Of a DNA stretch of 64,000 nt, positions 16,397-57,942 are shown one piece after another. The notes beneath the pieces are model-generated. The model saw only the letters and a program-made list of their open reading frames with translations, was not told the DNA's origin and ran no database searches. The stretch's first letter is position 1; each line of letters starts with the position of its first letter. The position numbers were made by a program, and so were the translations under genes. Location of the stretch: positions 10,564 to 74,563 of the forward strand of contig DYJL01000008.1 in NCBI GenBank assembly GCA_020723105.1. Reading direction: 5' to 3'. The DNA is from Nitrospira japonica (lineage in GTDB: Bacteria > Nitrospirota > Thermodesulfovibrionia > UBA6902).

Positions 16397-16440
16397 CTGA
16401 ACTTGTCTTCATAAATTTGAAATTTTCTCATTATCCCCTC

Positions 16441-17671: not shown

Positions 17672-17688
17672 AATTTGAAATTTTAAAT

Positions 17689-21833: not shown

Positions 21834-21885
21834 TTAAACCTTCCCTTTCTTAGCAGTTTTTCTACTCCTTACCCTACACCCTGTC
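21834..21885 (-). promoter_or_regulatory. G-rich TAGGG-type tract upstream of chaperone/nxr-like operon start
   Basis: The minus strand reads CGAGGACGTGGGAGTAAGACAGGGTGTAGGGTAAGGAGTAGAAAAACTGCTAAGAAAGGGAAGG. Confidence 0.35.
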
Positions 21886-22614: not shown

Positions 22615-23036
22615 TCTAATCCTCCACTTTTTATATCCCCTATCTTCACCTTTGGTCTTCCACCAAGGCTTTGCATATACGCAACAACAGCCGTTATCTC
22701 TGCATCGTTGAGATATGCAGGCGCTTTATTTGCTGCAGGCATAACATCGGTGCCGTTATAAAGTATTGCTGCCATTATCTCTGCATCCCTTTCAGCGCCT
22801 ATCCTGGAGAGGTCAGGCCCTCTCAATGTTTCACCTCTGACACTATGACAAACGCCGCAGCCGGCTCGTTTAAAGATATCCCTCCCTGCCTCTGCCAGCT
22901 CTGCTGGTTTCATATCAGGAGTCAGGACTTTTTTCTGAGGGGCTTCCCACGCAGACTGTGGAATGGAATTGCCAAACCAGGCGTAGAGTCCTGTAACTAT
23001 CAGGGCCACAATTATCAGTTTCGTACCTCCACTCAT
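22611..23036 (-). CDS. Membrane-anchored monohaem c-type cytochrome
   Basis: An N-terminal TM (LIIVALIVTGLYAWF) precedes a single CxxCH motif (CGVCHS) with a distal Met-rich region. It overlaps both neighbours by 4 nt. Confidence 0.65.
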   Translation of the reverse strand: MSGGTKLIIVALIVTGLYAWFGNSIPQSAWEAPQKKVLTPDMKPAELAEAGRDIFKRAGCGVCHSVRGETLRGPDLSRIGAERDAEIMAAILYNGTDVMPAANKAPAYLNDAEITAVVAYMQSLGGRPKVKIGDIKSGGLE

Positions 23037-24724
23037 CTTGCACCTCCCTTTTCCGCTCCTGTAAATCTGAATACCAGGCCTATGAGAAAAAGAAATAACA
23101 GAGTTATCCCTGATATGACCAGAGTTGCATTACCCAGGGCCGGAAGCCCTGCATATTTTGACGTATCTTCAAGGACCCCGTAGACATGCCAGTTGAGCCT
23201 TGCTGCTGCACGGCCATATCCAAGAAGGGCCATGGCCCAGACATTAGATACCGCAACTGCAATCAGGGCATATTGAGACCTCGGAGGCATATGTCCCCAC
23301 CGTATCTCGCCAGTCCTCGGAGCGTTTTTTAACAGCAGGCCGTCAAGGAGATATATTAAGCCGATAGCAGGCACCATAAATATGAAGGTGTAGATAGACA
23401 GCCTTATTCTCGTTGTAGAAGGAACCGTGTAACTGTAATAAAGCACCACAAGGTTTACTGCAATGATAAGCAGGATAATAAGCCACTGGATAAATGAATA
23501 AGCCTTTCGGCCTTCGGGAATAATCCGGCCGGCCCGCCTGTTAAGCAGAAATGTAAGGATTACACCAAGGATTGCGATATTTACCGCAGCGATTTTTGGC
23601 GCCATTATGCCAACGGTGCCGAATATCGGATGGGTCCCTCCTGCCATGTCTTCAAGAGAAGCAACCCAGGCTCTTGGGGTAGCCCATACTGCAAAGGCAA
23701 TAATCAGTCCCCAGCTAAGATAGGGAATATATTTTTTATATTTTTCCGAACCGGGGATTCTCTCAAGCCCGAGCCAGAGGTAATAACATATTCCAATAAA
23801 TACTACTGCAATAACTATGGCCTGAAGCAGCCATATCTTGGAAAGCGCCCCGCCCATGAAGGTGATACCCATCTGTGCATTAAACCTGTAAATCTCCATT
23901 CCGAAATAGTATCCGGCAAAGGGAAGGAATATCATTGTGACCACGCCGACAAAGGTGCCGGTATATCCCATCCAGTCATAGTGGGCCTTTTCATTATCTG
24001 TTTCTGCGGAGAGATATTTATATGCAGCATAGGCCGCGCATATGAAACCGCCAAAGGAAACATTGGCAATAAACCTGTGTATGTTTATGGGCCAGAAGGT
24101 CAGATTGAATATCGCATCTTTAAGGCTTACAAACTTGCCTGCGGAATCAACGCCTGCAGGGCTCAGGTGAAAGGACCCCCACATGTTAGCTGTTATCATC
24201 ACAAGGGTTCCAAGTATATTCAGGACCAAACCAAGCAGTATGTGCTGCATCTTTTTTTCGCACTGAAGCTTATCCCATGTAGTCCAGTAAATATAGACTG
24301 CTGTAGACTCGAGAAACACAAGCGCTGCAAAGAGAGCATATGTTGGTTTGAAGGCGACTGTCATGTAATTCATAAATTTCGGGAACAGCGTGCAGCTTAC
24401 AAGAGTGAACAGACCGCCCAGAATAGCTGTAATGGAATAAGAAGGCGGAAGGAGCCTCGCAAAATCCTTTGCAAGCTTATCGAGCTTTTCGTCTTTTTTA
24501 ACATAACCTGCAATTTCAATTATCATGACAAAGACAGGCACAGCCAGTATAAAGGCAGCAAAAAGAAGCATGGTCTGTGCCACAATCCATACTGCATTTC
24601 TGGCGCCGATTACGGGGAATTCTTTGTAGTCAACACCTGCCTGGCCTCCAATATATATACCTGCTGCTGCTATGGCCAAACCAGCCAAGAGAATAAACTG
24701 CTTTTTAATCCAGCCTCCCATCAA
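23033..24724 (-). CDS. Polytopic integral membrane protein (about 13-14 TM), possible cytochrome bd-like/quinol-interacting subunit
   Basis: 563 aa with many hydrophobic helices. It is co-operonic with the cytochromes c and the Nxr-like enzyme. It lacks canonical CydA N-terminal His and Q-loop motifs, so the assignment rests on context only. Confidence 0.4.
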   Translation of the reverse strand: MMGGWIKKQFILLAGLAIAAAGIYIGGQAGVDYKEFPVIGARNAVWIVAQTMLLFAAFILAVPVFVMIIEIAGYVKKDEKLDKLAKDFARLLPPSYSITAILGGLFTLVSCTLFPKFMNYMTVAFKPTYALFAALVFLESTAVYIYWTTWDKLQCEKKMQHILLGLVLNILGTLVMITANMWGSFHLSPAGVDSAGKFVSLKDAIFNLTFWPINIHRFIANVSFGGFICAAYAAYKYLSAETDNEKAHYDWMGYTGTFVGVVTMIFLPFAGYYFGMEIYRFNAQMGITFMGGALSKIWLLQAIVIAVVFIGICYYLWLGLERIPGSEKYKKYIPYLSWGLIIAFAVWATPRAWVASLEDMAGGTHPIFGTVGIMAPKIAAVNIAILGVILTFLLNRRAGRIIPEGRKAYSFIQWLIILLIIAVNLVVLYYSYTVPSTTRIRLSIYTFIFMVPAIGLIYLLDGLLLKNAPRTGEIRWGHMPPRSQYALIAVAVSNVWAMALLGYGRAAARLNWHVYGVLEDTSKYAGLPALGNATLVISGITLLFLFLIGLVFRFTGAEKGGAR

Positions 24725-36609: not shown

Positions 36610-37263
36610 CTATTCTGCAGCGCCTGCTTTTTTGAGGAGCTGTACTATATCATCATGGCCGTTCTGAGCAGCATATATTAACGCAGTACCGCCAAAGTTA
36701 TTTTTCAGATTCACATCAGCTCCTTTATCAAGTAAGGCTTTTACTATGTCGTCATGGCCCTCCTGAGAAGCGATGAACAGGGCTGTTCCGCCGTTATTAG
36801 TCCTTGCATTTACATTGGCGCCTCTGTCCAGCAGTACTTTCACAACATCGCCATAAGCTGTAGCAGAAGCAAAAATCAAAGGACTTTCCCCATTACTGGC
36901 TTTTGCATTTACATCCGCGCCATGATCCAATAAGGTCTTCACAATTTTGACATGTCCTCTGGAAGAAGCAAACATTAAAGCGGTTGTGCCCTTATTGGCT
37001 TTTGCATTTACATCCGCGCCTTTTTTAAGCAGGACCTCAACTATTTTGTCATGGCCTTCCAGGGAAGCATACATCAGGGCTGTTATGCCGTTACTGTTTT
37101 TTGCATTCACATCCGTCTTATTATCCAGCAAAGCCTGCACGCCGTCGTAGTCGCCTCTGAGAGCGGCTTCAGTTAATGTTGTCGTTATTTGCCGGCTGGT
37201 TGCACAGTTAATGAATAATATTGATAACAGCATTATTGACAGCATCTTTAAAGTTCGCAGCAT
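36610..37263 (-). CDS. Secreted ankyrin-repeat protein
   Basis: A signal peptide precedes at least 5 ankyrin repeats (TALMYASLEGHDKIVEVLLKKGADVNAK...). Confidence 0.8.
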   Translation of the reverse strand: MLRTLKMLSIMLLSILFINCATSRQITTTLTEAALRGDYDGVQALLDNKTDVNAKNSNGITALMYASLEGHDKIVEVLLKKGADVNAKANKGTTALMFASSRGHVKIVKTLLDHGADVNAKASNGESPLIFASATAYGDVVKVLLDRGANVNARTNNGGTALFIASQEGHDDIVKALLDKGADVNLKNNFGGTALIYAAQNGHDDIVQLLKKAGAAE

Positions 37264-37320
37264 ATTAATATCTCCATACCTTTATATATCACAATTGGCC
37301 TGATGAAACCAGTTAAATTT

Positions 37321-38730
37321 TTACTTTTCAAGTTTTCCGATAATCCGGTCTTTATCAGCCAGAATTCCCCTTGTGCTGATGAGCACGTATGCCGTATCGT
37401 TCTCAACAGCGCATTGAATTCTGTACCAGGCTCCAAGGCTCCTGACAAAGAGGCCGAGAAAGACAAACAAACATGCAAAACCCACGAGCCAGACCCCGGG
37501 GTCCTTTCTGTAACTCAGAACAGAGCCTTCTTCATAAGCCTTAAATTCAAAAACAACATCTTTTGCTTTAAGCCGTTCGCTGAGCCTGATTTCCCCAAGC
37601 GCCTCTTTTTCTGAAGGCTTATCTTCGGGTGTGTAATAAAGGGTGGTAAGAGGAGTTATTTTTTCTTCTGAACCGTCTTTCTTGAAAAGGGTCCCTGTCT
37701 TTAAATGGTCCACAAAAAACTTCCCTTTTATATCTTTAATCTGAAAAGGCACCCGCGCCTCTGCTATAATTTCTTCTCCATTTACCAGTAAGTTAACCTT
37801 CTGTTCATAACCCATCTGATAAAGCGTAAGAGCTCCGGTCCTGAAGGGTTTGTTTACCCATAATCTTGCATCAAGTATTTCGCCATCAGGTTTTTTTACA
37901 TCGAGATGCGTCAGCCACATCCTGGGCATGTAAGAGAACCCTTTTGTCGAGGGCTCAAGTTTCTTCAGTCCCACACCAAGTTTAAATTTTTCCATCTTTT
38001 CCTTCGGATAATCTATCTTCAGTCCCTGATAATATTCGGTGCGAAACTCTTTAAGAGTAAGAAGGTATTTATCTTCTGCTGTTTCTTCCCGCACTTTCAT
38101 GCCGAATTTTCTGACGTATTGGTTCCACCTTGTTTTGCTGCTGCGAAGTGATATCGTGTCAGGTTTGCCGGGATAAAGAACTATATAATTTTCAAATGCA
38201 AATAACGCTGTCAGGAAAAAACCTGCAATGGCCAGTATTATTCCGATGTGATAAAACCATGAAAGCCACCAGAAGGGCAGGCCTTTCTCAAATATCTTTA
38301 CAGCAGGATGTGGATAATTTTGAATCTCTGCCTTCAGTTTGAATCCGATATTTCTCAGGCGCTTTTCGATATCAATATCAGTGGAAGGCGCAGATGAGAA
38401 GGTATGCTTGAAGGTTACAACATTCGGATTTATTTTTAAGCTCTCAAATTCAACCGGCTTTCTCTTAATCTTTAAGTATATCTTAAGCCTGTCATACAGG
38501 CATACTGAAAGATTTACAATGAGAAAGACAGTAGAGATAATAAACAGAGGCGACATGAAGATGTCGAGAAAATCCAGGGCTCTTACAAAAGAAACATATT
38601 TCCCGCCAGCTTTTATATAGTCTTCAATTTTTTCTCCCTGTGGAAAGATAGTGCCTGCCAAAAAAATGAGGCTCATAACTATAATGATATAGACAGAGGT
38701 TCTGAGTGACGAAAAGAACTTATACAGCAT
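37321..38730 (-). CDS. ccsB: Cytochrome c biogenesis protein ResB/CcsB (system II)
   Basis: The ResB-like N-terminus (FFSSLRTSVYIIIVMSLIFLAGTIFPQ) is followed by a large periplasmic domain and a C-terminal TM. Confidence 0.75.
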   Translation of the reverse strand: MLYKFFSSLRTSVYIIIVMSLIFLAGTIFPQGEKIEDYIKAGGKYVSFVRALDFLDIFMSPLFIISTVFLIVNLSVCLYDRLKIYLKIKRKPVEFESLKINPNVVTFKHTFSSAPSTDIDIEKRLRNIGFKLKAEIQNYPHPAVKIFEKGLPFWWLSWFYHIGIILAIAGFFLTALFAFENYIVLYPGKPDTISLRSSKTRWNQYVRKFGMKVREETAEDKYLLTLKEFRTEYYQGLKIDYPKEKMEKFKLGVGLKKLEPSTKGFSYMPRMWLTHLDVKKPDGEILDARLWVNKPFRTGALTLYQMGYEQKVNLLVNGEEIIAEARVPFQIKDIKGKFFVDHLKTGTLFKKDGSEEKITPLTTLYYTPEDKPSEKEALGEIRLSERLKAKDVVFEFKAYEEGSVLSYRKDPGVWLVGFACLFVFLGLFVRSLGAWYRIQCAVENDTAYVLISTRGILADKDRIIGKLEK

Positions 38731-39619
38731 ATGTATGCATACTGGGAATGTCCAGAAGTTTCACAAGCCAGTTGACTCCCAGAAAAGTCATTATCATACA
38801 GATGAAACCTATTATATTTAAAACCGAAGCAGGCCTGTCTTTCCATCTGCCGATGGTCTTTGTGTGAAGATATATAGCGTAGACAGTCCAGGTGATGAGG
38901 GACCAGGTCTCTTTCGGGTCCCAGGACCAGTATCGGCCCCAGGCGTCATTGGCCCATGCAGCGCCTGAGAAGATTGCAAATGTAAGAAAGGGGAAACCGA
39001 GGAGGACAAGCCTGTGAGTCCATCTGCGGAAGTGTTCGTCTATAATGCCGAAGGCCCTTCTATTATTATGTTGCAGGGACCAAGCAGCTTCGCTCCCTTT
39101 TTTTATTCCGAACCCCAGATAACACACCTCTACTGAGAAACTTACAACAAAAACTGCATATGACAGAAAGGCTGCTATCACATGCACCTCATACCACGGA
39201 CTTTGAAGAGGAGGAGGCACAGGAGCTATTACAGGGTCGCGGCTCAGCAGGCTGTAAAGACATGCTGCCATTGAGATGCCCGCAACAATGAATCCGGGCA
39301 AGTGTACATTTTTCCATCTGCTCTGAGCATACAGGTAAGTTGCGCTTGCAAACCACGCAAACCATGAAAGCGTTTCATATAAGGTCTGAAAAGGCGGTCT
39401 CATCCCCTCGACAGTCCTGAACAGAATGAGTATTGTATGGAGAATTACAGTTATCCAGAGGCCTCTTGTAAGCGTTCTGCCGAGACTTTCTTTTGATGAA
39501 AGCAGATATGCAAGGCCGGTTATAAAACAAATTCCGTAGAGTAATGCAACAAGCCAGAAGAGTTTAAGTTCAAGGCTCAAAAGCAGTGCATCCCGTGAAA
39601 GTAACTGTTCCGGCGTCAT
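38720..39619 (-). CDS. ccsA: Cytochrome c biogenesis protein CcsA/ResC (system II)
   Basis: The WWD domain W-x-WDPKETWSLITW is present and the protein is polytopic. It overlaps ccsB by 11 nt. Confidence 0.8.
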   Translation of the reverse strand: MTPEQLLSRDALLLSLELKLFWLVALLYGICFITGLAYLLSSKESLGRTLTRGLWITVILHTILILFRTVEGMRPPFQTLYETLSWFAWFASATYLYAQSRWKNVHLPGFIVAGISMAACLYSLLSRDPVIAPVPPPLQSPWYEVHVIAAFLSYAVFVVSFSVEVCYLGFGIKKGSEAAWSLQHNNRRAFGIIDEHFRRWTHRLVLLGFPFLTFAIFSGAAWANDAWGRYWSWDPKETWSLITWTVYAIYLHTKTIGRWKDRPASVLNIIGFICMIMTFLGVNWLVKLLDIPSMHTYAV

Positions 39620-40971
39620 GGGTTAAAATCTTCCTTAAGGCGTGTCTTTTCCTGGTCTGCCACGACGACAAGAACAATATTTTCAGGTTCGAGATATTTT
39701 TTCGCAACCCGTAAAACATCTTCTTTTGTCACGCTGTTTATATAAGAAGCATATTTATCAATATAGTCCGTTCCAAGTCCGTAGTATTCAACTGCTAATA
39801 GAAAGCTGGCTATACGTTGGCCTGTTTCCAGTCTCAGGGGAAAACTTCCGGTCAGAAAGGACTTTGCATCAGACAGTTCTGTGTCTGATACCGGCTTGTC
39901 TCTGAGCATCTTTATTTCTTTCAGGATTTCCTCTATTGCTGTATTGGCAGATTCATTTTTAGTCTGAACGCCGACTTCAAAAAGGCCCCCATATTTATTT
40001 GCATCAAAAAAACTGTGAATATCATAAGCGAGACCTTTTTCTTCTCTTACATTCTGCATAAGCCTGGACTCAAAGCCGCCTCCGCCGAGGATGTAATTCA
40101 TAACTGATATAGCGTAAAAATCAGGGTTGTCTCTGCTGACACCTGCGTGCCCCATTATAATGCTGGCCTGAGACAATTCTTTATCTACTGAAATAATCTT
40201 TTTCCCCTTAGCTCCCGCTGAAATCAGGGAAGTGGAACCTTTAATTTCTTTTTTATGCCATTCTGAGAAATATTGTTTAAGCAGATGTTTCACCTCTTCT
40301 GCTGTTATATCTCCTACAACAGACATTATTGCATTGTTGGGAGCATAGTATGCAGAATGAAAATCAGCAATATCGTCTTTATTAATCGTATCGAGTGTTT
40401 CTGGGGCGCCCTGAATCAGTCTGCCGTATGGATGTGTGCCAAATACTGCTTTCTTAAATTCCCGTGAGGCAACAAATTCAGGATTCTCTTCCTGGGCCTT
40501 TAAGCCGCCTTTTATGCGTTCTCTTTTTTTGCTAAGCTCATCTTCCGGAAATGAGGGGTTGAGGATTATATCTGAAAGCAGTTCGAAACCAAGGGTGATA
40601 TCTTTTTTCAGAATGGAAAGAGATACCGTTACATAATCATCATCTGCAGAGGCTCCAAGTGAGGCCCCTACAAATTCTGTTTCCTCGCTGATTTGGCGGG
40701 AAGTTCTGTTTTTGGTTCCCCCTGTCAGGAGACTCGCAGTAAAGTTGGCAAGGCCTGCCTTTTTTTCAGGCTCGATTATGCTGCCTGCCTTGACAGCAAC
40801 AACGACTTTGACTATGGGAAGGTTATGCTTTTCAACAGTCATAAGCGTTAGCCCGTTTTCGAGTACTTCTCTTTTGAGGTCAAGGGCATAAGCATCAGTA
40901 AACAGTGAACAGTGAACAGTAAACAGTAGAAAAACAGTAACGAGTATTATTCCCGGCTTCTCACTCCTCAC
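39616..40971 (-). CDS. M16-family peptidase, non-catalytic partner subunit
   Basis: The M16 fold is present, but the HxxEH position reads GLANFTASLLTGGT, so it has no zinc ligands. It overlaps the upstream M16 gene by 4 nt. Confidence 0.7.
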   Translation of the reverse strand: MRSEKPGIILVTVFLLFTVHCSLFTDAYALDLKREVLENGLTLMTVEKHNLPIVKVVVAVKAGSIIEPEKKAGLANFTASLLTGGTKNRTSRQISEETEFVGASLGASADDDYVTVSLSILKKDITLGFELLSDIILNPSFPEDELSKKRERIKGGLKAQEENPEFVASREFKKAVFGTHPYGRLIQGAPETLDTINKDDIADFHSAYYAPNNAIMSVVGDITAEEVKHLLKQYFSEWHKKEIKGSTSLISAGAKGKKIISVDKELSQASIIMGHAGVSRDNPDFYAISVMNYILGGGGFESRLMQNVREEKGLAYDIHSFFDANKYGGLFEVGVQTKNESANTAIEEILKEIKMLRDKPVSDTELSDAKSFLTGSFPLRLETGQRIASFLLAVEYYGLGTDYIDKYASYINSVTKEDVLRVAKKYLEPENIVLVVVADQEKTRLKEDFNP

Positions 40972-42335
40972 TTTTCACTCCTCACTTTCACAGGGATCAG
41001 GATTCCAACTGTTCGTTTATCTTCAATGAGATATTTCCGGGCCACGCTCTGAACATCAGCAGGGGTAACCTTTCTTATCCCTTCAAAATATCTGTCTTTT
41101 AGTTTCTGGTCTCCGAGCATCTCAAACATCGCTACAATTTCTGCCTGAAAGAAAAGAGAATCCTGCCCCATAAGAAAACTCGCCTCAATCTGGTTTTTTG
41201 CCTTCTGAACTTCACGTTCACTCGGCGGTTCTTTTTTGATTTTTTCAACCTCTGCATATAAAGCCATTTCAACTTCGTCAAGCGCTTTGCCCGGTAAAGT
41301 TGTCGCATCAAGATAGAAAAGCGAAGGGTACTTTCCAAGACTGCTGTAGGATGCGTCTGCTGACAGAGCGATCCGCTTTTCATCAATTAAACTTTTGTAG
41401 ATCCTTGAACTTTTTCCACCTGAAAGCACACCAGCCAGCACCTCAAGAGCGAAGCTGTCATCATTGAAGATATTTGGAGCCTTATAGGCGCAAAGCACAT
41501 ACGGTAATTCGGCCTCCTTTTTTACATACAGCCTTCTTTCTCCCATTTGCTCAGGTTCTGCAATATCGGGATTCCTTATCTCTTCCCCCTTAGGAATGCT
41601 GCCGAATTCATTTCGGATCTTTTTCATCAAAGAGCCTGTGTCAATATTGCCGGCAATAATAATTGTTGCATTATTCGGCACATAATGTTTCCTGTAATAA
41701 TTATAGAGGTCCTCTCTCGTTATTCTCTGTAAATCCTGCATCCAACCGATTACAGGCCATCTGTAAGGAATATTTTTAAATGCAGTTGAAATTACCTCTT
41801 CATATACGAGGCTCTGAGGGTCGTCTTCATAACGCATTCTGCGCTCTTCCATTACGACGTCTCTCTCTGCGAGTGTCTCCTTGGGATCCATTATTAAATT
41901 GCGCATCCTGTCTGCCTCGAGTTCTATTGAGAGATGCAGTTGGTCCGGTGCGAGCTTCTGATAGTAAAATACATAGTCTCTGCTTGTTCCTGCGTTATCA
42001 ACCCCGCCGGCTCTGCTGATAATTTTTGAAAACATCTTTGGGCCATGTTTGGGAGTGCCTTTAAACATCAGGTGTTCAAGCAAATGACTGAGCCCTGTCT
42101 TGCCGACCTGCTCATTGATCGAGCCTGCGTTGTACCAGATCTGAAAAACAGCAAGAGGCGCATTCGGGTCTTTAAGGGCATAAACTTTAAGTCCGTTAGG
42201 GAGTATTTCTTTGTAAAGCGCCCCGTTTTTTTCGGTTGTTACATTAGTAACCGGATGAGCACAGTTAAAGACGGCAAACAATAGCGGCAACAACATAATG
42301 ATGAAATATTTTTTCATTGTCATAAATGCTAACAA
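40968..42335 (-). CDS. M16-family zinc peptidase (inverzincin), catalytic subunit
   Basis: The inverzincin motif HLLEHLMFKGT is present. A signal peptide starts from M7 (MKKYFIIMLLPLLFAVF), so the true start is probably 42317. Confidence 0.8.
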   Translation of the reverse strand: MLAFMTMKKYFIIMLLPLLFAVFNCAHPVTNVTTEKNGALYKEILPNGLKVYALKDPNAPLAVFQIWYNAGSINEQVGKTGLSHLLEHLMFKGTPKHGPKMFSKIISRAGGVDNAGTSRDYVFYYQKLAPDQLHLSIELEADRMRNLIMDPKETLAERDVVMEERRMRYEDDPQSLVYEEVISTAFKNIPYRWPVIGWMQDLQRITREDLYNYYRKHYVPNNATIIIAGNIDTGSLMKKIRNEFGSIPKGEEIRNPDIAEPEQMGERRLYVKKEAELPYVLCAYKAPNIFNDDSFALEVLAGVLSGGKSSRIYKSLIDEKRIALSADASYSSLGKYPSLFYLDATTLPGKALDEVEMALYAEVEKIKKEPPSEREVQKAKNQIEASFLMGQDSLFFQAEIVAMFEMLGDQKLKDRYFEGIRKVTPADVQSVARKYLIEDKRTVGILIPVKVRSEK

Positions 42336-42427: not shown

Positions 42428-42799
42428 TTACCAGCACCTGCAATTGCTGCATCCTTTCATGGCAGTGTGCGGGGCTTTTTCAGAAATCTTTTCCTTCAAG
42501 GCTATAATGTCTTTCTCGAGCATTGACAGTACATCAGGAGATGTCCTGGAATCACGAACGGCCTCACGATATTCAAATTTCTTGTCATGAAGCTGTTTTC
42601 TTAAGTCTTTTGTTTCATTAAGAAACTTCTGATCTAACATCGGTTGGCACATTTCTGTCATTTCATGCATCATGGCGGATCCGCAGCCATGTTTCATCAT
42701 ATTATCCTGCCCCCCTTTGTGCTCAGGGCCATGTGCAAAAACAAGCGCTGCAAATGCAAAGAGTGATATGACAGCTATTGTGATGAATATTTTTTTCAT
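42428..42799 (-). CDS. Periplasmic Met/His-rich protein, Spy/CpxP/ZraP-like
   Basis: A signal peptide is followed by the HGPEHKGG...MMKHGCGSAMMHEMTEMCQPM metal-binding-like stretch. The C-terminal helical LxxxQ-type region is LRKQLHDKKFEYREAV. Confidence 0.45.
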   Translation of the reverse strand: MKKIFITIAVISLFAFAALVFAHGPEHKGGQDNMMKHGCGSAMMHEMTEMCQPMLDQKFLNETKDLRKQLHDKKFEYREAVRDSRTSPDVLSMLEKDIIALKEKISEKAPHTAMKGCSNCRCW

Positions 42800-43064: not shown

Positions 43065-43104
43065 CACACTAGCCAAAAATAATTTTAGAAGGAGTTATGA
43101 ATAG

Positions 43105-43686
43105 ATGAAAATAACCAGAACTGCTGCCGGCATGGTTGTTATTTTATTTTCCCTCGGCATATTTCTGTCCGGATGCACAAAGGATAAAAGCAATCATGAG
43201 CTTACTGAAAAAACCCCAATTGCTGAATTAATGGCAGCAATGAATATCAAGCATATTACACAACCAACAGGCGCCCCTGATTTTGAGCTGTTTTCTGTAA
43301 AAGGCCAAAAGGTAAGTCTCAGTCAATATCGCGGCAAGGTTGTTTTACTGAGTTTTTGGTCTACATGGTGACCCTGGTGCAGGAAGGAGTTGCCTTCCCT
43401 GGAAAAGCTTAATCAGATTTTCAAAAACGATAAATTTGTACTTTTAGGTATTGATATAGGAGAAAACAGAGACACCGTCTTAAGCCAGGTTCAGCAATAC
43501 GGGCTTACTTTTGATAATTTACTGGATGAAACAGGTGAAGTTAGCGCTGGTTATGCAGTCCGTTCCACCCCGGTGAAATTTATTATTGATGCTAAAGGAA
43601 ATCTGATTGGGTTTTCACTTGGCTATAATGAATGGGATAGTAACGAGATGCAGTCCTTAATCCGGCGGTTAATGGAGGCAGGCTAA
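43105..43686 (+). CDS. TlpA/ResA-like thiol:disulfide oxidoreductase lipoprotein, selenocysteine in active site (UxxC)
   Basis: Lipoprotein signal ...FLSGC is present. The thioredoxin-fold context VVLLSFWSTW-TGA-PWCRKELPSLEKL puts the TGA at 43369-43371 exactly at the first Cys of the WCxxC motif. ORF 43390-43686 is in the same frame and continues the Trx fold. A SECIS-like hairpin lies 9 nt downstream. Confidence 0.7.
43380..43401 (+). other. SECIS-like hairpin downstream of UGA in tlpA-like gene
   Basis: CAGGAAGG-AGUUG-CCUUCCCUG forms an 8-9 bp stem with a one-nt bulge and a 5-nt loop containing GU. Confidence 0.45.
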
Positions 43687-44015
43687 TAAATAGACCTGAT
43701 ACGCCCTGTTCGGCGGTCAAAAATAATAATATCGACTATTCCTATTTCATCATATATTCTGGCTCTGATAAATCTCTCACCTCTTTTCTCGAGCATAACA
43801 GACAGTCCTTTTCTATTATAGTAGTCTTTTAAGGCCTTCTCAGCATCGTAATCAGTCATTACTGTATTACAAGTGCCGTAGTCCACGCATTTTTTTGGAC
43901 AGGAATCACCATACGGAGTTACCGGTTTACCTCTGGGCCAGGCATAGGTGTCTGAAACTGAAAAGCATAACAATGATACGGACACAATCAGTATGGAGAA
44001 GATAACCTGTTTCAT
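43683..44015 (-). CDS. Small secreted hypothetical protein
   Basis: A 110-aa protein with an N-terminal signal peptide (ILIVSVSLLCFSVSDTYA) and a Cys-containing mature part. It is convergent with, and overlaps by 4 nt, the tlpA-like gene. Confidence 0.4.
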   Translation of the reverse strand: MKQVIFSILIVSVSLLCFSVSDTYAWPRGKPVTPYGDSCPKKCVDYGTCNTVMTDYDAEKALKDYYNRKGLSVMLEKRGERFIRARIYDEIGIVDIIIFDRRTGRIRSIY

Positions 44016-44175: not shown

Positions 44176-45531
44176 TCAAAATATAACGGTGAATTTTGAC
44201 CCTTCAAGGGGTTTGCTTACAACATCTATTTTACCGCCCATTACCTCAGTCAGTTCTTTTACTATGGCAAGCCCCAACCCTTGTCCGGACGACTCCCGGC
44301 CTTTATAAAATCTTTCAAAAATCTTTGAAAGGTCTTCATGTTCAATTCCTTTCCCTGTATCTTCAACACTAAGGTAAAACCCCTCAATATTATCCTGTCT
44401 GTGTTTTCCCCATCGTATGGTTATCATCCCCTGCTCCGTATTTTTATAAGCATTTGTCAGCAGATTCTTTAAAATGATATGCAGCTTTTCAGGATAGGTT
44501 TTTACAGTAATTGAAGGGCCGCTGGTCATTAAAGAAAGCCCTTTTTCTTCAATCAGCTTTCTCATTCCTTCGGCTGCTGCTTTTACAAATGCTCCGAGTT
44601 CGATTTCTTCCACATCCCCTCTTTTAAAAAAACTTGCCTCAGCCCGTGTCATATCCTCTATCCCTTCAACAAGAGAAATCATCCTGTGGACTTCTGAATT
44701 TATGTTTTTAATTACTTCATGAAGATCTGAAATTACTCCATCTTCAACTGCTTCGAGATTCCCCTTGATAATAGTTAAAGGCGTTCTTAACTCATGTGTA
44801 ATATTGGATGTAAGATGCTTTCTTAACAGGTCCTCCCTTTTAAGCGCCTCAGCCATAAAAGTGAAAGTTTCTGTCAGTTTGTCAATCTCGTCTTTATATT
44901 TACGGGGCTTCTTTGGTGTCTGGATAGTAAACTCTCCTCTCGCTATTTTTTCGGCGGCAGACGTTAAACGTCTGACAGGTGTAGAGATCAATACAGTAAA
45001 CAAAATTGATAAGAACAAAGCTCCAGCACTGGCTATCAGGAAGGAAATAATAAGAAACTCCCTTCCTCTTTTTCTGAATATTTCTTCCTTGAGCGGAATG
45101 GCTCCGAGTCTTTCAAGTGGCCTTATATACAGTTTGCCTATTTCGTGGCCTTCGACGTATAGCGGATACCATGTAAAGTCTCCTTTTCCTGTAGGCAGTT
45201 TCAGGAATGAATGCATTCTGTGCAGCATGTATGAATCCATTAAAAAAATAACATCGGTAGACGATAGTATCCTGCTGCCGGAGGAATCCTCCAGATAACT
45301 CTCGAAACCGAGCATTAAACCCCAGTGGAGCGTTTCATGGAGGGTAGCATGATGCCAGATGCCGTTTTTATAGCTTCCCTCTATAGATGCCAGAATCCAG
45401 TAGATATGATCCTCTTTCGTGCCTTTAACAAAGACCTCGAAATCTTTCATGATAAGTTTTTCAAAAACGATGTTTGAGAAGAGGGCGAGAAGGATGATGA
45501 ATATGAATGCAAAAAATAATTTAGTCCTCAT
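44176..45531 (-). CDS. Sensor histidine kinase (TM-HAMP-HisKA-HATPase)
   Basis: The H-box NITHELRTPLT and N/G-box LLTNAYKNT...GQGLGLAIV are present. The start is set at MRTKLFFAFIF (TM1). The longer 45606 start would overlap the RR gene by 86 nt. Confidence 0.8.
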   Translation of the reverse strand: MRTKLFFAFIFIILLALFSNIVFEKLIMKDFEVFVKGTKEDHIYWILASIEGSYKNGIWHHATLHETLHWGLMLGFESYLEDSSGSRILSSTDVIFLMDSYMLHRMHSFLKLPTGKGDFTWYPLYVEGHEIGKLYIRPLERLGAIPLKEEIFRKRGREFLIISFLIASAGALFLSILFTVLISTPVRRLTSAAEKIARGEFTIQTPKKPRKYKDEIDKLTETFTFMAEALKREDLLRKHLTSNITHELRTPLTIIKGNLEAVEDGVISDLHEVIKNINSEVHRMISLVEGIEDMTRAEASFFKRGDVEEIELGAFVKAAAEGMRKLIEEKGLSLMTSGPSITVKTYPEKLHIILKNLLTNAYKNTEQGMITIRWGKHRQDNIEGFYLSVEDTGKGIEHEDLSKIFERFYKGRESSGQGLGLAIVKELTEVMGGKIDVVSKPLEGSKFTVIF

Positions 45532-46231
45532 CAGGCTGACCGATAAATTTATATCCTGCGCCGTAAACTGTTTTGATATACGAGGGGTTCCTTGGATCTT
45601 CTTCAATCTTGTGGCGGATATTCTTTATATGCGCATCAATGGTCCTGTCGTATCCTTCAAAGTCATACCCCAGGATTACATTAACAAGCTGCAGTCTTGA
45701 GAAGATTTGCCCGGGATGTTCTGCAAGGCATTGCAAAAGCTTAAACTCAGTAGGTGTGAAAGTAACGGGTGAGCCGTCTTTTCTTATTTCAAAACGGAAA
45801 GAATCAATAACAAGGACGCCGTTATTAAAACTTATGCTCTGTTTCGATCCTTTGAATCTTCGCAATAATGCCTTAACTCTTGCAACAAGTTCTCTCGGAC
45901 TGAAGGGTTTAATTACATAATCATCAGCGCCCATGCCGAGGCCTTTTATCCTTTCCTCTTCTTCACTCTTTGCGGTTAACATAATGATAGGTATGTCGGA
46001 GTCTTTACGGATGGTCTGGCAAATGTCCTCTCCATCCATATCCGGAAGCATGAGATCGAGGATTATAAGATCAAATCCTTCCTTCAGCGCTGATAGGGCT
46101 TTCTGTCCGGTATGTGCAACTGTTACCGTAAAACCCTCTTTTTCAAGATAGGCTTTCACGATACTTGCTATTTTTTCTTCATCATCAACGACGAGTATTC
46201 TGCCCCTGTGCATGGTAAAATGATACCACAA
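45521..46231 (-). CDS. OmpR-family response regulator
   Basis: The REC domain (ILVVDDE...DLIILDLMLPDMDG) is followed by a winged-helix domain (LTPTEFKLLQCLAEHPGQIFSR...VYGAGYKF). Confidence 0.85.
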   Translation of the reverse strand: MWYHFTMHRGRILVVDDEEKIASIVKAYLEKEGFTVTVAHTGQKALSALKEGFDLIILDLMLPDMDGEDICQTIRKDSDIPIIMLTAKSEEEERIKGLGMGADDYVIKPFSPRELVARVKALLRRFKGSKQSISFNNGVLVIDSFRFEIRKDGSPVTFTPTEFKLLQCLAEHPGQIFSRLQLVNVILGYDFEGYDRTIDAHIKNIRHKIEEDPRNPSYIKTVYGAGYKFIGQPDED

Positions 46232-55895: not shown

Positions 55896-57275
55896 TTATT
55901 TTCCTGTCAGCTTCAAAGGGTCAAGAATCCGGGATGCCTCTGTTCTATCTAACATACTTTTCTCAATAACAATCTGCTTCACAGATTTTCCAGTCCGGTA
56001 TGCTTCTTTTGAAATCTCAGCAGCGGCTGCATAACCGATTAGTGGATTCAGTGCAGTCGCCATAGCAAGGGTATTATCAGCGAAAACCATACACTTCTCA
56101 GGATCAGGTTCAATCCCTTTCAGACACTTATGGATAAATACATCCACACCATTGGTTAGAATATCAACAGAGGAGAGCAGATTATATGCTATAAGCGGCA
56201 TCATCACATTGAGTTCAAGTTGTGAAGCCTGAGTCGCGTAAGCGATTGCTGTATCGTTTCCTATAACCTGAAAACAAACCATATTTAGCATTTCTGCCAT
56301 TACTGGATTTACCTTGCCCGGCATTATTGATGAACCAGGTTGTACGGCAGGAAGCTTTATCTCTGCAAAACCTGTACGCGGTCCGGAACTTAGCAAACGG
56401 ATATCATTAGCTATTTTAGTCAGTGTTATTGACACCCCTCTAAGCGATGCACTGAGTTCAAGTGCAGGGTTTACATTCTGAATGCCTTCAAAGAGATTTT
56501 TGCATTTTTTAAATTTAATGCCAGTAATTTTTATTATTTCTCTGATAATATAATTCCGGAAGCCGGGTTTGGCGTTTATGCCAGTGCCAACTGCATTGCC
56601 GCCAATCGGCAGATAAAGAAGTGATTCAGAAGCACGGGAGATACGGTGGATATCGTTTTTAATCGCTTCTGCATAGCCGCTGAATTCTTGCCCAAGCCTT
56701 ATAGGTACAGCATCTTGCAGGTGCGTTCTTCCTGCTTTTACAATCGAATCGAACTCCCTGGATTTGTGGAATAGTGTATTTTCTAAAGTTTTTAAGACAG
56801 GAAGCAGATCGTCTCGTACAGCTTCAAACGCTGAAATGTATATTGAAGCAGGAATTGTATCATTTGTTGACTGGGCCATATTTATATGATCATTCGGATG
56901 AATTATTTTATAATCGCCTTTCTCGCCTTTTAAAATTTCAATCGCTCTGTTTGCGATCACTTCATTGGCATTCATATTCTGGGAAGTTCCTGCCCCCGCC
57001 TGGTAAACATCAACAACAAAATGACTGTCATGTCTGCCATCTGTTACTTCCTGAGCGGCTTGCTCAATAGCCTTTAATAATTTTTTCTCAATAAGACCCA
57101 ACCCGCCATTAGCCCGCGCTGCAGCCAGTTTAATTATCCCCTGTGCTCTGATAAATCGTCTTGGAAGTTTCATGCCGCTTATGGGAAAATTTTCCATGGC
57201 CCTTTTCGTTTGAGCGCCATAATAAACATTATCGGGAAGCTTTACTTCCCCAAGGGTATCTTTCTCAATTCTCAC
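55896..57275 (-). CDS. Aspartate ammonia-lyase / class II fumarase family (aspartase-like)
   Basis: The signature GSSIMPGKVNP is present. The N-terminus MRIEKDTLGEVKLPDNVYYGAQTKRAMENF is closer to AspA than FumC. Confidence 0.85.
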   Translation of the reverse strand: MRIEKDTLGEVKLPDNVYYGAQTKRAMENFPISGMKLPRRFIRAQGIIKLAAARANGGLGLIEKKLLKAIEQAAQEVTDGRHDSHFVVDVYQAGAGTSQNMNANEVIANRAIEILKGEKGDYKIIHPNDHINMAQSTNDTIPASIYISAFEAVRDDLLPVLKTLENTLFHKSREFDSIVKAGRTHLQDAVPIRLGQEFSGYAEAIKNDIHRISRASESLLYLPIGGNAVGTGINAKPGFRNYIIREIIKITGIKFKKCKNLFEGIQNVNPALELSASLRGVSITLTKIANDIRLLSSGPRTGFAEIKLPAVQPGSSIMPGKVNPVMAEMLNMVCFQVIGNDTAIAYATQASQLELNVMMPLIAYNLLSSVDILTNGVDVFIHKCLKGIEPDPEKCMVFADNTLAMATALNPLIGYAAAAEISKEAYRTGKSVKQIVIEKSMLDRTEASRILDPLKLTGK

Positions 57276-57290
57276 TTGTATTTCTCCTTT

Positions 57291-57767
57291 TCATTTGAAC
57301 TTGTTACACAGGTCCTCAATAAACGCCTGAAGTTCATTAGGACTGATGAGTTGTTCTGGCAACTGAATCTCAGTCATCCCCATTGCCTTAAACGTTTTTT
57401 TCAGAAGGTGTATAACGCAGTGGCTGATTATCTCGTCAGGCAGTGAATCGGACGCATTTTCTATCAGCAGCATTTCCTTGTACCAGCCATTGCCTGGAGG
57501 AATAATCCCTGTGCAGTGCTCTCCTTTTATTGCCTTTGGGGTCGCTCCTCTTGATAACGCTATGGCGCGAGCATCGAGATTTACCAGTTGTAATCCTCTC
57601 ATGACAGGGTTGGACATCGGGCGGTGCCGTCCTTTTGTGATGGGCATGAAACGAAACAAATCAACTCCGGTGCAGTAAACAAAAGTACCCTTATTCCTGC
57701 TTTCATCAGGCCTGAATACAAAATATAGAAAACTGTTTATATATTCGTATGATTTTTGTGCAGTCAT
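57291..57767 (-). CDS. Hypothetical protein
   Basis: 158 aa with no recognisable motif. It is co-directional with, and 15 nt downstream of, the aspartase-like gene. Confidence 0.4.
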   Translation of the reverse strand: MTAQKSYEYINSFLYFVFRPDESRNKGTFVYCTGVDLFRFMPITKGRHRPMSNPVMRGLQLVNLDARAIALSRGATPKAIKGEHCTGIIPPGNGWYKEMLLIENASDSLPDEIISHCVIHLLKKTFKAMGMTEIQLPEQLISPNELQAFIEDLCNKFK

Positions 57768-57942
57768 GAAAAGTTAAAAGGTATTAACTAAAGAACACTC
57801 ATAGTTATTCAAAAAAGTTTTGCTATATTATATCGAATTATTTATAAAGAATGTTATAACGATTTTTTTAAAGACGCTTCTTACAGTTTTTGATTTAAAA
57901 TATTTTGACAGTGTTGATATTGCTTCTTTATAATGATTCATT

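Follow-up and report, generated by a model that had tools for sequence, protein, structure and literature searches.

A UGA-interrupted TlpA/ResA-like redoxin gene of Nitrospirota is a probable selenoprotein gene with relatives in Desulfobacterales

One reading frame interrupted by a single TGA

Does the reading frame at positions 43105-43686 (+), which is broken once by TGA, represent one gene whose UGA is read as selenocysteine (Sec), a decayed gene, or a shorter gene that starts behind the stop, and what would its product do? The locus lies in the window, that is, the whole 64-kb stretch of Nitrospirota DNA analysed here. The initial annotation had described two abutting same-frame ORFs split by a TGA at 43369-43371 (+), and reading of the sequence agrees with this: the TGA is the sole break in the frame, and the junction VVLLSFWSTW-[TGA]-PWCRKELPSLEKL matches the earlier description exactly. 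Read through, the coding sequence of this TlpA/ResA-like redoxin comprises 193 codons including UGA-89, followed by the stop codon TAA, and a Shine-Dalgarno (SD)-like AAGGAG at 43089-43094 (+), read directly from the sequence, lies 10 nt before the ATG. We consider it very probable that 43105-43686 is one functional Sec gene coding for a periplasmic thiol-disulfide reductase, a judgement that covers this core claim and leaves the client aside.

Positions 43105-43176 (+) read as a signal peptide with the lipobox L-S-G-C, whose Cys24 codon lies at 43174-43176. In line with the lipoprotein initially proposed, this lipobox predicts a membrane-tethered, periplasm-facing product; orthologues carry sequences ending in AC, SC or GAC at the same place. 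The gene was also suspected to be missed or split by gene callers, and this is the case: it is represented by ORFs of 88 and 98 aa in the Logan assembly and by fragments in GenBank, where RJQ51315.1, MBI5058000.1, MBI4849058.1 and UCD80235.1 are 98-103-aa entries labelled 'TlpA family protein disulfide reductase' without the active site.

The TGA falls on the catalytic position of a thioredoxin-fold protein

The assignment to a TlpA/ResA-like thioredoxin fold was upheld by Pfam, NCBIfam, PDB sequence matches, an AlphaFold model and fold matches, which all agree. AhpC-TSA was the top Pfam match (93.9 bits, E 9e-27) and extended across the TGA in one frame over residues 57-181, and Redoxin (E 2e-21) was likewise continuous over the TGA (residues 57-181). 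In the AlphaFold model (pLDDT 90), residue 89 is located between a strand (79-85) and a helix (91-105). The best structural matches were the Geobacter Trx-family protein 3KCM, TlpA (4TXO and 1JFU) and ResA (1SU9), with TM values up to 0.92; structure comparison gave TMq values of 0.71-0.73 against TlpA 1JFU and 4TXO. PDB sequence matches included 3HDC (4e-25), ResA (5e-21), TlpA (2e-13) and CcmG/DsbE 1KNG (1e-9), the closest solved structures by sequence being the Cys-type Geobacter metallireducens proteins 3HDC and 3KCM.

When the protein is aligned with 19 Cys homologues, the TGA falls on the first Cys of the CxxC motif (a column with at least 90% Cys), and the second Cys is invariant. This supports the proposed U-x-x-C active site, U89-P-W-C92 in the context FWSTW-U-PWCRKE, in which Sec89 (43369-43371) would be the first residue of the redox motif, aligned with the catalytic Cys of homologues, and Cys92 (TGC, 43378-43380, +), an invariant column in both alignments used (A1 and A2), the resolving Cys. 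Pro156 of a T-P motif (43570-43572, +), nearly invariant in A1, is taken by us to be the cis-proline that a thioredoxin fold is expected to have opposite the active site.

Among full-length relatives, the nearest are Cys forms with WCSPC, WCPPC or WCPNC and at most 46% identity, while every match with at least 50% identity is a fragment, about 81-99 aa long. Searching with the full-length protein returned Cys homologues only (at most 44% identity), since the database entries for the orthologues are split ORFs; the orthologues were recovered by searching with the C-terminal ORF instead. A scan of genome contigs with the C-substituted protein detected just two Cys proteins, distant relatives from Gemmatimonadales and Iainarchaeum.

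Conservation of the TGA codon in two phyla

Sec-containing orthologues, whose existence the initial annotation had left to be checked, were searched for and found in Nitrospirota and Desulfobacterales. More than 80 independent orthologous loci with 38-69% identity carry TGA at exactly the same codon, and in none of them was Cys found at this position. Among metagenomic relatives with at least 38% identity, TGA occupied this codon in 76/76 cases, in a scan whose pattern left the codon free, and it did so in about ten further loci (L005-L008, L090-L096), some of which (L090-L096, including U-T-W-C variants) were found solely via the C-terminal fragment. Stops at varied positions, the expected sign of a pseudogene, were absent from all 76 close metagenomic relatives and the additional loci. 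Since TGA is present in that many independent assemblies, sequencing error is excluded.

The C-terminal ORF search yielded 151 protein clusters, all of 95-116 aa, i.e. split at the TGA, and 103-112 open codons follow the TGA in 75/75 complete loci. Downstream of the TGA, pN was 0.19-0.36 compared to a pS of 0.59-1.0, with similar values for the upstream half; both halves of the gene are under purifying selection. The Pro codon directly following the UGA is represented by all four synonymous codons with the amino acid unchanged. As judged from their sequences, the members form a clade with three defining features: the motif W-U-[PT]-W-C-R-K-E, an anchor of the lipoprotein or signal type, and a single predicted SECIS element that hardly varies.

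A bSECIS-like hairpin downstream of the UGA

The hairpin initially proposed, CAGGAAGG-AGUUG-CCUUCCCUG (43380-43401, +), does begin at the ninth nucleotide after the TGA, and both comparative evidence and the fit to a published model mark it as bSECIS-like. Its 6-bp core stood up to comparison, whereas the two outer pairs did not: 39% and 14% of the sequences are unpaired there, and the element was therefore trimmed to the conserved 17-nt core GGAAGG-AGUUG-CCUUCC at 43382-43398 (+), with the loop AGUUG at 43388-43392. The minimum free energy (MFE) is -8.6 kcal/mol for the 22-nt version and -7.6 kcal/mol for the core. At each of the six core pairs, 98-100% of the sequences can pair, and a single compensatory change, from G-C to A-U, was observed.

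In 68 unique sequences, synonymous sites are frozen over exactly the hairpin codons. The Lys codon is AAG in 68/68 compared to 48 AAG and 62 AAA at control Lys codons, Glu is encoded by GAG in 68/68 compared to 20 GAG and 31 GAA at the control Glu codon, and Pro by CCT in 67/68, with all four codons occurring at the control Pro (Fisher p 1e-15 to 1e-29, values that are uncorrected for phylogeny). The bSECIS model specifies a loop of 3-9 nt, a stem of 4-16 bp, a G in the first two loop positions, a UGA-to-loop distance of 16-37 nt and an MFE of at most -7.5 kcal/mol (PMC13188914). With its 5-nt loop, 6-bp stem, G and U at loop positions 2 and 3, a loop that begins 16 nt after the UGA and the energies given above, the hairpin fits this model, at its lower bounds.

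By itself the hairpin was modestly better than shuffled sequences (z -2.0 to -2.8); in a context of 62-121 nt it was no more stable than shuffles (z +0.5 and 0.0). Lacking thermodynamic significance in the longer context, we therefore relied on the comparative evidence. Rfam assigned no SECIS or other RNA family, either in the whole window in gathering mode or to 43300-43480 in E-value mode. Support from covariation is minimal, the score being equalled by 13/500 shuffles and exceeded when the 3' partners were slid by +1. An SD-like AAGGAG motif in the 5' arm could account for some of the nucleotide conservation.

The element resembles the E. coli fdhF-type SECIS and the bSECISearch consensus in being a small hairpin that lies within the coding region directly 3' of the UGA, with apical loop G and U at positions 2-3 and all limits observed. 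It differs in its minimal dimensions (6 bp, 16 nt, -7.6 to -8.6 kcal/mol) and, compared to the fdhF-type SECIS, in that no bulged U is evident.

This arrangement bears directly on the view that no recoding takes place, i.e. that translation stops at the TGA and re-initiates at a TTG or ATG seven codons on, or that the gene is a nonsense-mutated pseudogene. The AAGGAG in the 5' arm is followed by TTG or ATG, which is why gene callers predict an ORF of 97-103 aa here, but the spacing between this SD-like motif and the start is 0 nt. Moreover, the residues P-W-C-R-K-E between the TGA and the putative start are kept as amino acids while synonymous change is free at Pro and Cys, the resulting fragment would be devoid of both redox residues and of a signal peptide, and CCUUCC in the 3' arm is just as constrained, for which an SD site offers no explanation. 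A pseudogene would not be expected to share an identical stop, an intact frame and a pN much smaller than pS across two phyla. We regard the absence of recoding as extremely improbable.

Sec decoding in the window and the putative recoding mechanism

A Sec-FdhA in the same region, noted initially, was verified. This NuoG-fused formate dehydrogenase alpha subunit is encoded at 11864-14557 (+), with a TGA at 12920-12922 in the canonical context DHCART-U-HAPTVAG, and possesses its own hairpin (12934-12952, +; loop GGUCU) 11 nt downstream of the TGA. The two hairpins have the same architecture, a 6-bp stem that carries a 5-nt loop with GU at its second and third positions. Use of Sec by the source genome is thus supported by the sequence of a second predicted selenoprotein gene. 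Neither selA, selB, selC nor selD was located within the 64-kb window, where no tRNA and, in the scanned ORFs, no SelA, SelB or SelD domains were detected. Another frame considered as a Sec-FdhA, at 55896-57773 (-), was rejected, since it consists of an unrelated ORF and, behind it, an aspartase/fumarase-type gene, and other TGA-joined frames in the window were antisense or adjacent-gene artefacts.

Reading of the UGA as Trp, Gly or Cys through an alternative genetic code or a suppressor tRNA is likewise extremely improbable: the ENA protein prediction P0001 does have Trp at the UGA position but is an annotation artefact (the DNA has TGA, and locus and protein mismatch under table 11), long ORFs densely cover the window under table 11, convincing in-frame TGAs occur only here and at the FdhA Sec codon, and they lie precisely on redox-active Cys positions.

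With Sec insertion as the preferred reading, SelB-GTP-Sec-tRNA(Sec) would bind the GGAAGG-AGUUG-CCUUCC hairpin and insert Sec at codon 89, and the lipobox L-S-G-C24 would target the protein to the membrane, on its periplasmic side. There, Sec89 at the N-terminus of helix alpha-1 would attack the disulfide of a client, Cys92 would resolve the mixed selenenylsulfide, and a CcdA/DsbD-type membrane transporter would re-reduce the U-x-x-C pair. No such CcdA/DsbD-type partner was among the window ORFs scanned.

Relation to known selenoproteins and thiol-disulfide reductases

The novelty implied by the initial annotation did not hold. Selenoproteins with UxxC, termed 'Prx-like thiol:disulfide oxidoreductase' or 'thiol:disulfide interchange' proteins, have been catalogued since 2004-2006, and the 'Prx-like' family (PF00578, UxxC or UxxU) was first predicted in Geobacter, Desulfotalea, Syntrophus and ocean metagenomes; its function is listed as unknown (PMC1088965, PMC1794560, PMC9312934, PMC13188914). 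The family is defined by the thioredoxin-like UxxC motif (PMC1088965, PMC9312934). Reviews assign members by a shared domain together with a shared Sec motif; by this rule, with PF00578 as its best domain match and UxxC instead of TxxU, the gene belongs to this kind, as judged by domain and motif rather than by alignment to the reference member WP_010940744.1 of Geobacter sulfurreducens. It shares with the 'Prx-like' selenoproteins the distant AhpC/TSA-type match, the U-x-x-C motif and the occurrence in anaerobic Deltaproteobacteria-type lineages; the clade described here stands apart by W-U-[PT]-W-C-R-K-E, the lipoprotein or signal anchor and the nearly invariant SECIS. The Nitrospirota branch and the gene neighbourhoods are not described in the cited family literature (PMC1088965, PMC1794560, PMC9312934, PMC13188914). 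The novelty is therefore modest, that of a new member or clade within a known selenoprotein kind. Membership in another Sec-containing family, characterized by WAxxUGC and a 354-position profile, was tried and rejected (41 bits compared to a cut-off of 300); it belongs to the same TlpA-like superfamily, while the motif here is W-U-P-W-C and the length is different.

Three groups of Cys-based reductases were compared. ResA of B. subtilis is the System II apocytochrome c disulfide reductase. This membrane-tethered, extracytoplasmic protein of TlpA-like fold (1ST9/1SU9) is the best characterised sequence match (E 5e-21, about 30% identity), its C-[KR]-K-E-[FL]-P segment aligns, and resB/resC homologues are situated nearby in the window. 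The conserved residues E95 and E120 align with residues of ResA that we take to be Glu80 and Glu105. Differences are Sec instead of Cys74, the dipeptide P-W in place of E-P, and the position of the gene outside a resABC operon, on the opposite strand and three genes away. TlpA of Bradyrhizobium, the reductant of ScoI and CoxB, is likewise a periplasmic membrane-anchored reductase (1JFU, 4TXO, 4TXV). Of the fold matches, those to TlpA cover the largest number of columns (about 160), including the N-terminal extension, and both proteins are linked to copper-centre and metal-handling proteins; identity is only 26%, TlpA has Cys, and there is no sco or coxB beside the gene analysed here. CcmG/DsbE of System I (1KNG) is comparable in that Desulfobacterales relatives directly precede ccmF, and ccmE follows farther along this strand, whereas the organism of the window has System II genes nearby and not ccm. 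The scores for the respective NCBIfam models remained below the cut-offs for ResA (NF002854, the best NCBIfam match, 96 bits, cut-off 170), for the rhizobial equivalog TlpA (NF047696, 78 bits, cut-off 230) and for CcmG/DsbE (TIGR00385, 55 bits, cut-off 123); therefore, no characterised orthologue group can be assigned.

Gene neighbourhood and candidate roles

Divergently oriented to the Sec gene lies a gene for a secreted, His/Met-rich ZraP/CpxP-like protein (42428-42799, -) that ends in C-x-x-C-x-C-W and weakly matches NCBIfam ZraP (E 2e-5). It is followed downstream by a string of minus-strand genes (37321-42335, assigned by Pfam/NCBIfam) for two M16 peptidases (40968-42335 and 39616-40971), ccsA/resC (38720-39619) and resB/ccsB (37321-38730). 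The ccsB-ccsA pair, initially placed about 4 kb upstream, is indeed located 3.5-5.8 kb upstream of the Sec gene. At the other end, a convergent gene for a 110-aa secreted protein with C-x-x-C-x-x-Y-G-T-C (43683-44015, -; no family match) overlaps the 3' end by 4 nt, followed by a two-component system that is conserved beside the gene and consists of a HAMP-HisKA-HATPase sensor kinase and an OmpR-type response regulator (44176-46231, -). Neither Pfam nor NCBIfam assigned the 110-aa neighbour, a 174-aa neighbour or the ZraP-like protein to a family with confidence.

Across the orthologous loci the neighbourhoods are heterogeneous, with Bat-like, Rieske/cytochrome b and copper-resistance genes and, identified by reading alone, Rnf-like genes; the assignment of a client therefore stays inferential. 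One reading, plausible though short of probable, is that the Sec protein serves a metal and envelope-stress module, where it would keep Cys motifs reduced or repair copper-catalysed disulfides, the candidate clients being the ZraP-like protein, PCYCGC-type proteins and the 110-aa C-x-x-C protein. The most recurrent neighbours in both phyla are metal and envelope-stress genes: homologues of the ZraP-like protein adjoin the gene in 16 loci, with Pfam Metal_resist in those of Desulfobacterales, homologues of the 110-aa protein lie downstream in 27, a PCYCGC-like protein adjoins in 18, and kinase and regulator are present in 27 and 18, respectively. Further loci contain Metal_resist, DUF2933, PCYCGC, HMA, YHS, multicopper oxidase, OEP and HK/RR genes, most of these being additions from Desulfobacterales, whose contigs also carry a sigma-54 ZraR-like regulator. 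The TlpA-ScoI complex 4TXO is among the best fold matches. By analogy, the role might be akin to that of TlpA on ScoI or to that of Salmonella ScsD, a membrane-bound reductase of the periplasm that is induced by Cu and binds Cu(I) via its active-site thiols (bioRxiv 10.64898/2026.05.22.727170; PMC10907172), and the U-x-x-C motif itself may bind soft metals. Likened by description, ScsD shares the membrane-anchored thioredoxin-like architecture and the copper/envelope-stress context; it is Cys-based and has ScsB as its partner, whereas no ScsB/DsbD homologue was seen in the window. Weighing against a metal-stress role, the family matches are below threshold for both the ZraP-like protein (Pfam Metal_resist, E 0.07) and the PCYCGC-like protein (E 9e-4), no copper exporter or multicopper oxidase is encoded within the window, and the argument is one of guilt by association.

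The initial annotation had favoured an apocytochrome disulfide reductase. Linkage to ccs and ccm genes was indeed found, but it is weaker than that to metal and envelope-stress genes, and we rate it as plausible, if slightly less so than the metal-stress role, that the Sec protein performs a dedicated ResA/CcmG step, in which it would reduce the disulfide of the apocytochrome CXXCH before haem attachment. The order ccsBA-M16-M16-ZraP-like, divergent from the Sec gene, recurs in two further loci (L031 and L033), and c-type cytochrome genes occur in the window at 21886-23036. In Desulfobacterales, relatives in five loci (L069, L072, L078, L079 and L081) lie directly upstream of ccmF, the usual position of CcmG; in L079, the sole locus with confirmed ccmE, one strand carries Metal_resist, DUF2933, Sec-TlpA, CcmF, two unassigned ORFs and CcmE. 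Rank of ResA as the best-characterised sequence relative and the alignment of the two Glu residues point in the same direction. However, the gene is not co-transcribed with ccsBA, which is on the opposite strand with three genes between and is missing from the surroundings of the L006 and L007 orthologues; the ccmF loci hardly differ from each other and stand for one or two lineages; independently sampled long contigs contain metal-resistance neighbours and no ccm or ccs genes; and the scores are below the ResA and DsbE cut-offs.

The two roles may coincide if apocytochromes are kept reduced under copper stress, and copper stress has been reported to target cytochrome c assembly (PMC4600104). 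More speculatively, and in our estimate unlikely, the proteins might form an obligately Sec-dependent TlpA-like clade linking metal/copper envelope stress to cytochrome c maturation, a copper-tolerant ResA/CcmG that would keep both apocytochrome CXXCH motifs and neighbouring Cys-motif metal proteins reduced.

That the protein is a peroxidase of the peroxiredoxin/GPx-like type, acting through a thiol or selenol, is very unlikely. AhpC-TSA is the best Pfam match, many fragments are labelled 'peroxiredoxin' by JGI, and Sec serves peroxide reduction in GPx and Sec-Prx, but the Prx signature P-x-x-x-T/S-x-x-C(U) is absent, with Leu at position -7 and Ser, Thr or Ala at position -3 (Ala in 47/68 unique sequences). 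In addition, U-x-x-C is a motif of the thioredoxin type, the best relatives with solved structures, ResA and TlpA, are reductases, and the UxxC 'Prx-like' family is kept apart from the TxxU Sec-peroxiredoxins (PMC1088965).

Implications for annotation and physiology

The practical value of a predicted periplasmic Sec reductase at this locus lies in the annotation of a routinely truncated selenoprotein gene. In every public record examined, the gene and its relatives are split or truncated, with over 150 clusters of fragments among the examples; the selenoproteins of Nitrospirota and Desulfobacterales are therefore undercounted, and an active redox enzyme goes unrecognised. The clade offers a clear-cut case of a selenoprotein without a close Cys counterpart, and its SECIS is frozen at the nucleotide level because of a double constraint, coding plus structure. 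Together, these two properties make the clade well suited for testing how SelB recognises a SECIS outside Proteobacteria. The neighbourhoods, comprising ccsBA, ccmF-ccmE and the ZraP-like, PCYCGC, DUF2933 and copper-resistance genes, yield concrete hypotheses on the client. If the proposed link to cytochrome c maturation were true, cytochrome c biogenesis, or its protection from metal stress, would be selenium-dependent in these anaerobes.

An in-frame TGA replaces the first redox cysteine codon of a TlpA/ResA-like protein

The gene at 43105-43686 (+) consists of 193 sense codons and a TAA in one frame, whose sole interruption is a TGA at 43369-43371; the junction reads ...RGKVVLLSFWSTW-[TGA]-PWCRKELPSLEKL.... 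With this TGA set to Cys, Pfam AhpC-TSA (E 9e-27) and Redoxin (E 2e-21) matched residues 57-181 unbroken across it, bearing out the initial annotation of same-frame ORFs split by a TGA. A table 11 ORF list breaks the gene at the TGA, into an N-terminal ORF of 88 aa (43105-43371) and a C-terminal one of 98 aa (43390-43686, TTG start), and it is likewise called as 88 + 98 aa in the Logan assembly of SRR13164373, which has the source contig. Aligning the protein with 19 homologues from databases put the TGA in the column of the first Cys of CxxC (at least 90% Cys), with the second Cys invariant, as expected from the proposed replacement of the first redox Cys. NCBIfam ranked ResA at the top (96 bits), followed by TlpA, StoA and DsbE, and since none of their curated cut-offs was reached, the gene product, here called Sec-TlpA, lies outside the curated ResA, TlpA and DsbE groups.

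The TGA codon and the downstream frame are conserved among relatives

Searching with the C-terminal 98-aa ORF retrieved three relatives of 98-99 aa and 60-69% identity, from the Nitrospirota MAGs GCA_003599505.1 and GCA_016214845.1 and one ENA contig, and at DNA level the upstream ORF stops in all three at a TGA at the same codon as in the Sec gene. The best full-length match, P0001 (41-44% identity), has a Trp at the Sec position but its DNA reads TGA; this Trp was rejected as a translation-table artefact, the gene (L005, 1-572, ENA ERZ25074855) having been decoded under a table in which TGA stands for Trp. The final ~40 nt at the end of this contig resemble sequencing-adapter sequence.

A scan of JGI metagenomes, based on an alignment of five orthologues and the patterns WxPWCRKE (x free) plus an N-terminal motif, yielded 80 loci. 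Stops at varied positions, named in the initial annotation as a sign of a pseudogene, were not found: TGA occupied the Sec codon in 76/76 loci with at least 38% identity, and only four relatives of 27-28% identity, one of them reading WCPWCRKE, were without it. Moreover, a Desulfobacterales C-terminal fragment matched 151 protein clusters, all of 95-116 aa and hence split, and the loci retrieved via these matches, a set independent of the scan patterns, again carried TGA, some as U-T-W-C. Among 1.84 billion representatives searched exhaustively with HMMER, all matches of at least 50% identity were fragments of ~81-99 aa; full-length proteins reached at most 46% identity, and the nearest of them were Cys forms such as WCSPC, WCPPC and WCPNC. 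Concordantly, the GenBank entries RJQ51315.1, MBI5058000.1, MBI4849058.1 and UCD80235.1 comprise only the C-terminal 98-103 aa, annotated as "TlpA family protein disulfide reductase" without an active site.

Past the TGA, 103-112 codons are open in 75/75 complete loci. Expressed as Nei-Gojobori proportions, pN was 0.09-0.23 versus a pS of 0.47-0.97 upstream of the TGA, and 0.19-0.36 versus 0.59-1.0 downstream. The shared TGA codon, the open downstream frames and pN below pS on both sides therefore exclude a pseudogene or a sequencing error. In one locus (L078, ~2637-2651) the codon for the conserved Trp in F-W reads TAG (DF*ATW-U-PWC), through a fault of sequencing or assembly or else because the gene is a genuine pseudogene in the population concerned.

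A minimal bSECIS-like hairpin follows the TGA

The hairpin reported just 3' of the TGA spans 43380-43401, with a core GGAAGG/CCUUCC in which 43382-43387 pair with 43393-43398. Across relatives this part of the proposal stood, the six core pairs being paired in 98-100% of sequences with G-U wobbles at one pair, whereas the two outer pairs are poorly kept. Synonymous sites of the hairpin codons are frozen, while neighbouring codons of equally conserved residues vary freely (68 unique sequences). Lys+5 is AAG in 68/68 (other Lys codons: 48 AAG, 62 AAA), Glu+6 is GAG in 68/68 (Glu+11: 20 GAG, 31 GAA) and Pro+8 is CCT in 67/68 (Pro+1: all four codons); Arg+4 is AGG or CGG with one AGA (Arg-13: all six codons), and Ser+9 is TCC or TCT only. 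Fisher p values for hairpin versus control codon usage ranged from 1e-15 to 1e-29, which are indicative only as phylogeny is ignored. Together with the conserved TGA and the open frame, these frozen codons substantiate the selenoprotein call. One locus (L083) carries a compensatory G-C to A-U change in the core stem; covariation support was weak in a formal test, as expected for a stem whose two arms also encode protein.

The loop reads A-G-(U/A)-U-N, with A, G and the second U invariant. Compared to the published limits of the bSECIS model (PMC13188914, Fig. 2 legend), the hairpin lies within all of them, at the minimal end, with a 5-nt loop, a 6-bp stem, G then U at loop positions 2-3 and 16 nt from UGA to loop. 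Its MFE is -8.6 kcal/mol (22 nt) or -7.6 (17-nt core); in longer sequence context the fold was indistinguishable from shuffles, and no Rfam model matched it. The reported Sec-FdhA, a formate dehydrogenase alpha subunit, was also recovered, at 11864-14557 (+), fused to a NuoG-like 2Fe-2S/4Fe-4S N-terminus and with a TGA at 12920-12922 in the canonical context DHCART-U-HAPTVAG; the hairpin 11 nt past this UGA (GUAGCC-GGUCU-GGCUGC) has the same architecture. As the second selenoprotein gene of the window, fdhA would be split by an ORF caller into 352 + 528 aa.

Alternatively, AAGGAG followed by TTG/ATG could form an internal start site. We reject this explanation: the spacing from AAGGAG to the start is zero, the six codons from TGA to TTG/ATG change in the manner of coding sequence, the 3' arm of the hairpin is frozen just as much, and a fragment begun there would have neither of the redox residues and no export signal.

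Sec-TlpA is predicted to be a lipoprotein with a thioredoxin fold

Read by eye, the N-terminus has a basic n-region, a hydrophobic core and a lipobox L-S-G-C24, whose Cys is at the same place in orthologues except for one with a plain signal or anchor. The AlphaFold model, built from the homologue alignment (mean pLDDT 90), places residue 89 between strand 79-85 and helix 91-105, the classical active-site position of the thioredoxin fold. Foldseek against the PDB ranked Geobacter metallireducens thioredoxin-family proteins first (3KCM, TM 0.92, target-length normalised), then Bradyrhizobium TlpA (1JFU, 4TXO) and B. subtilis ResA (1SU9), in agreement with the PDB sequence search (3HDC 4e-25, ResA 5e-21, TlpA 2e-13, CycY/CcmG 1e-9). 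With the ResA active site numbered Cys74/Cys77, E95 and E120, which are conserved in orthologues, correspond to ResA Glu80 and Glu105. Sec89 would act as the attacking nucleophile, Cys92 would resolve the mixed selenenylsulfide, and a CcdA/DsbD-type transporter, absent from the window, may recycle the protein.

Gene neighbourhoods point to metal stress and cytochrome c maturation

In the window and in Nitrospirota-type loci the Sec gene is monocistronic. Its divergent neighbour (42428-42799, -) encodes a ZraP/CpxP-like, His/Met-rich periplasmic protein ending in G-C-S-N-C-R-C-W, and homologues adjoin the Sec gene in both Nitrospirota-type and Desulfobacterales loci (as Pfam Metal_resist in the latter). 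It heads a minus-strand string that continues (36610-42335) with two M16 (insulinase-type) peptidases, ccsA/resC (38720-39619), resB/ccsB (37321-38730) and a five-repeat ankyrin protein, confirming the annotated upstream ccsB-ccsA; ccsBA recurs upstream in L031 and L033 and is absent in L006 and L007. The M16-M16-ccsA-ccsB order is unusual and is seen again in L031 and L033. Convergent to the Sec gene, with a 4-nt overlap at its 3' end, lies the gene of a secreted 110-aa protein with C-P-x-x-C-x-x-Y-G-T-C (43683-44015, -); it is conserved on the downstream side of the orthologues in 27 loci, has no family in Pfam or NCBIfam, and may be a client or partner. The third flanking element consists of genes for a sensor kinase and a response regulator.

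In one Desulfobacterales lineage a single strand carries Metal_resist, DUF2933, Sec-TlpA, CcmF, two unassigned ORFs and CcmE, so that the gene occupies the CcmG slot. The CcmE haem chaperone in this strand-run (L079, 9290-9682, +) has a C-x-x-x-Y C-terminus (MPKCASKYE), of the Cys type instead of the usual His. On other long contigs the neighbours include Metal_resist, DUF2933, PCYCGC, HMA, YHS, multicopper oxidase and OEP genes, along with sigma-54 two-component systems and further Cys-type redoxins; on one, the Sec gene adjoins Rieske/cytochrome b genes. Full-length Cys-type redoxin paralogues (187-195 aa) abut it in L091 (7414-7977), L093 (5759-6346) and L095 (5260-5826), so that several Desulfobacterales loci may have a Sec/Cys pair of paralogues within a single operon. 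In a few loci the neighbours are unrelated, being Rnf-like or Bat-like by eye; in L026 and L038 five same-strand genes, RnfD/G/E/A/B-like by eye and ~0.3-4.4 kb upstream of the TGA, stand immediately before the Sec gene.

Given these copper and metal genes, a metal/envelope-stress module is the most recurrent association of the Sec gene, and metal-stress proteins are possibly its clients. Cytochrome c maturation genes occur nearby in two arrangements (System II, System I) and in fewer lineages; apocytochrome c as client is a slightly less probable reading, and the cytochrome c biogenesis role initially proposed is still one of two hypotheses in contention. The two are reconcilable, because copper stress has been reported to target periplasmic c-type cytochrome assembly (PMC4600104) and reductases of the type of ScsD, a Cu-induced membrane-bound reductase (bioRxiv 10.64898/2026.05.22.727170), exist. 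That Sec-TlpA is a peroxidase is very improbable, and the peroxiredoxin motif PxxxTxxC is absent from it.

Other features of the window

A cluster at 15316-24724 (-) encodes a type-II periplasmic molybdoenzyme like nitrite oxidoreductase or nitrate reductase, with an EB_dh haem-b subunit (15316-16431), a 4Fe-4S subunit (16441-17637), a 1147-aa molybdopterin subunit with TAT signal (17689-21132) and a NarJ-like chaperone (21129-21833); next to these come genes for two c-type cytochromes (21886-23036) and one for a cytochrome bd-like oxidase subunit (23033-24724), all on the minus strand. A 1240-aa ORF at 7090-10812 (+) had no Pfam match at E <= 1e-5.

A new member, or clade, within a known selenoprotein kind

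UxxC "Prx-like" selenoproteins (PF00578) have been reported from Geobacter, Desulfotalea, Syntrophus and marine metagenomes, beside related entries such as "thiol:disulfide interchange protein", "Redoxin family protein (UxxC)" and UGC-type TlpA proteins, with functions listed as unknown; in these papers we found no description of a Nitrospirota branch, of a lack of close Cys counterparts, of a nearly invariant SECIS or of the gene neighbourhoods (PMC1088965, PMC1794560, PMC9312934, PMC13188914). By the criteria of these reviews the Sec gene belongs to the "Prx-like" UxxC kind and is a new member or clade within it. The finding is useful chiefly for annotation and as a pointer to what the family does.
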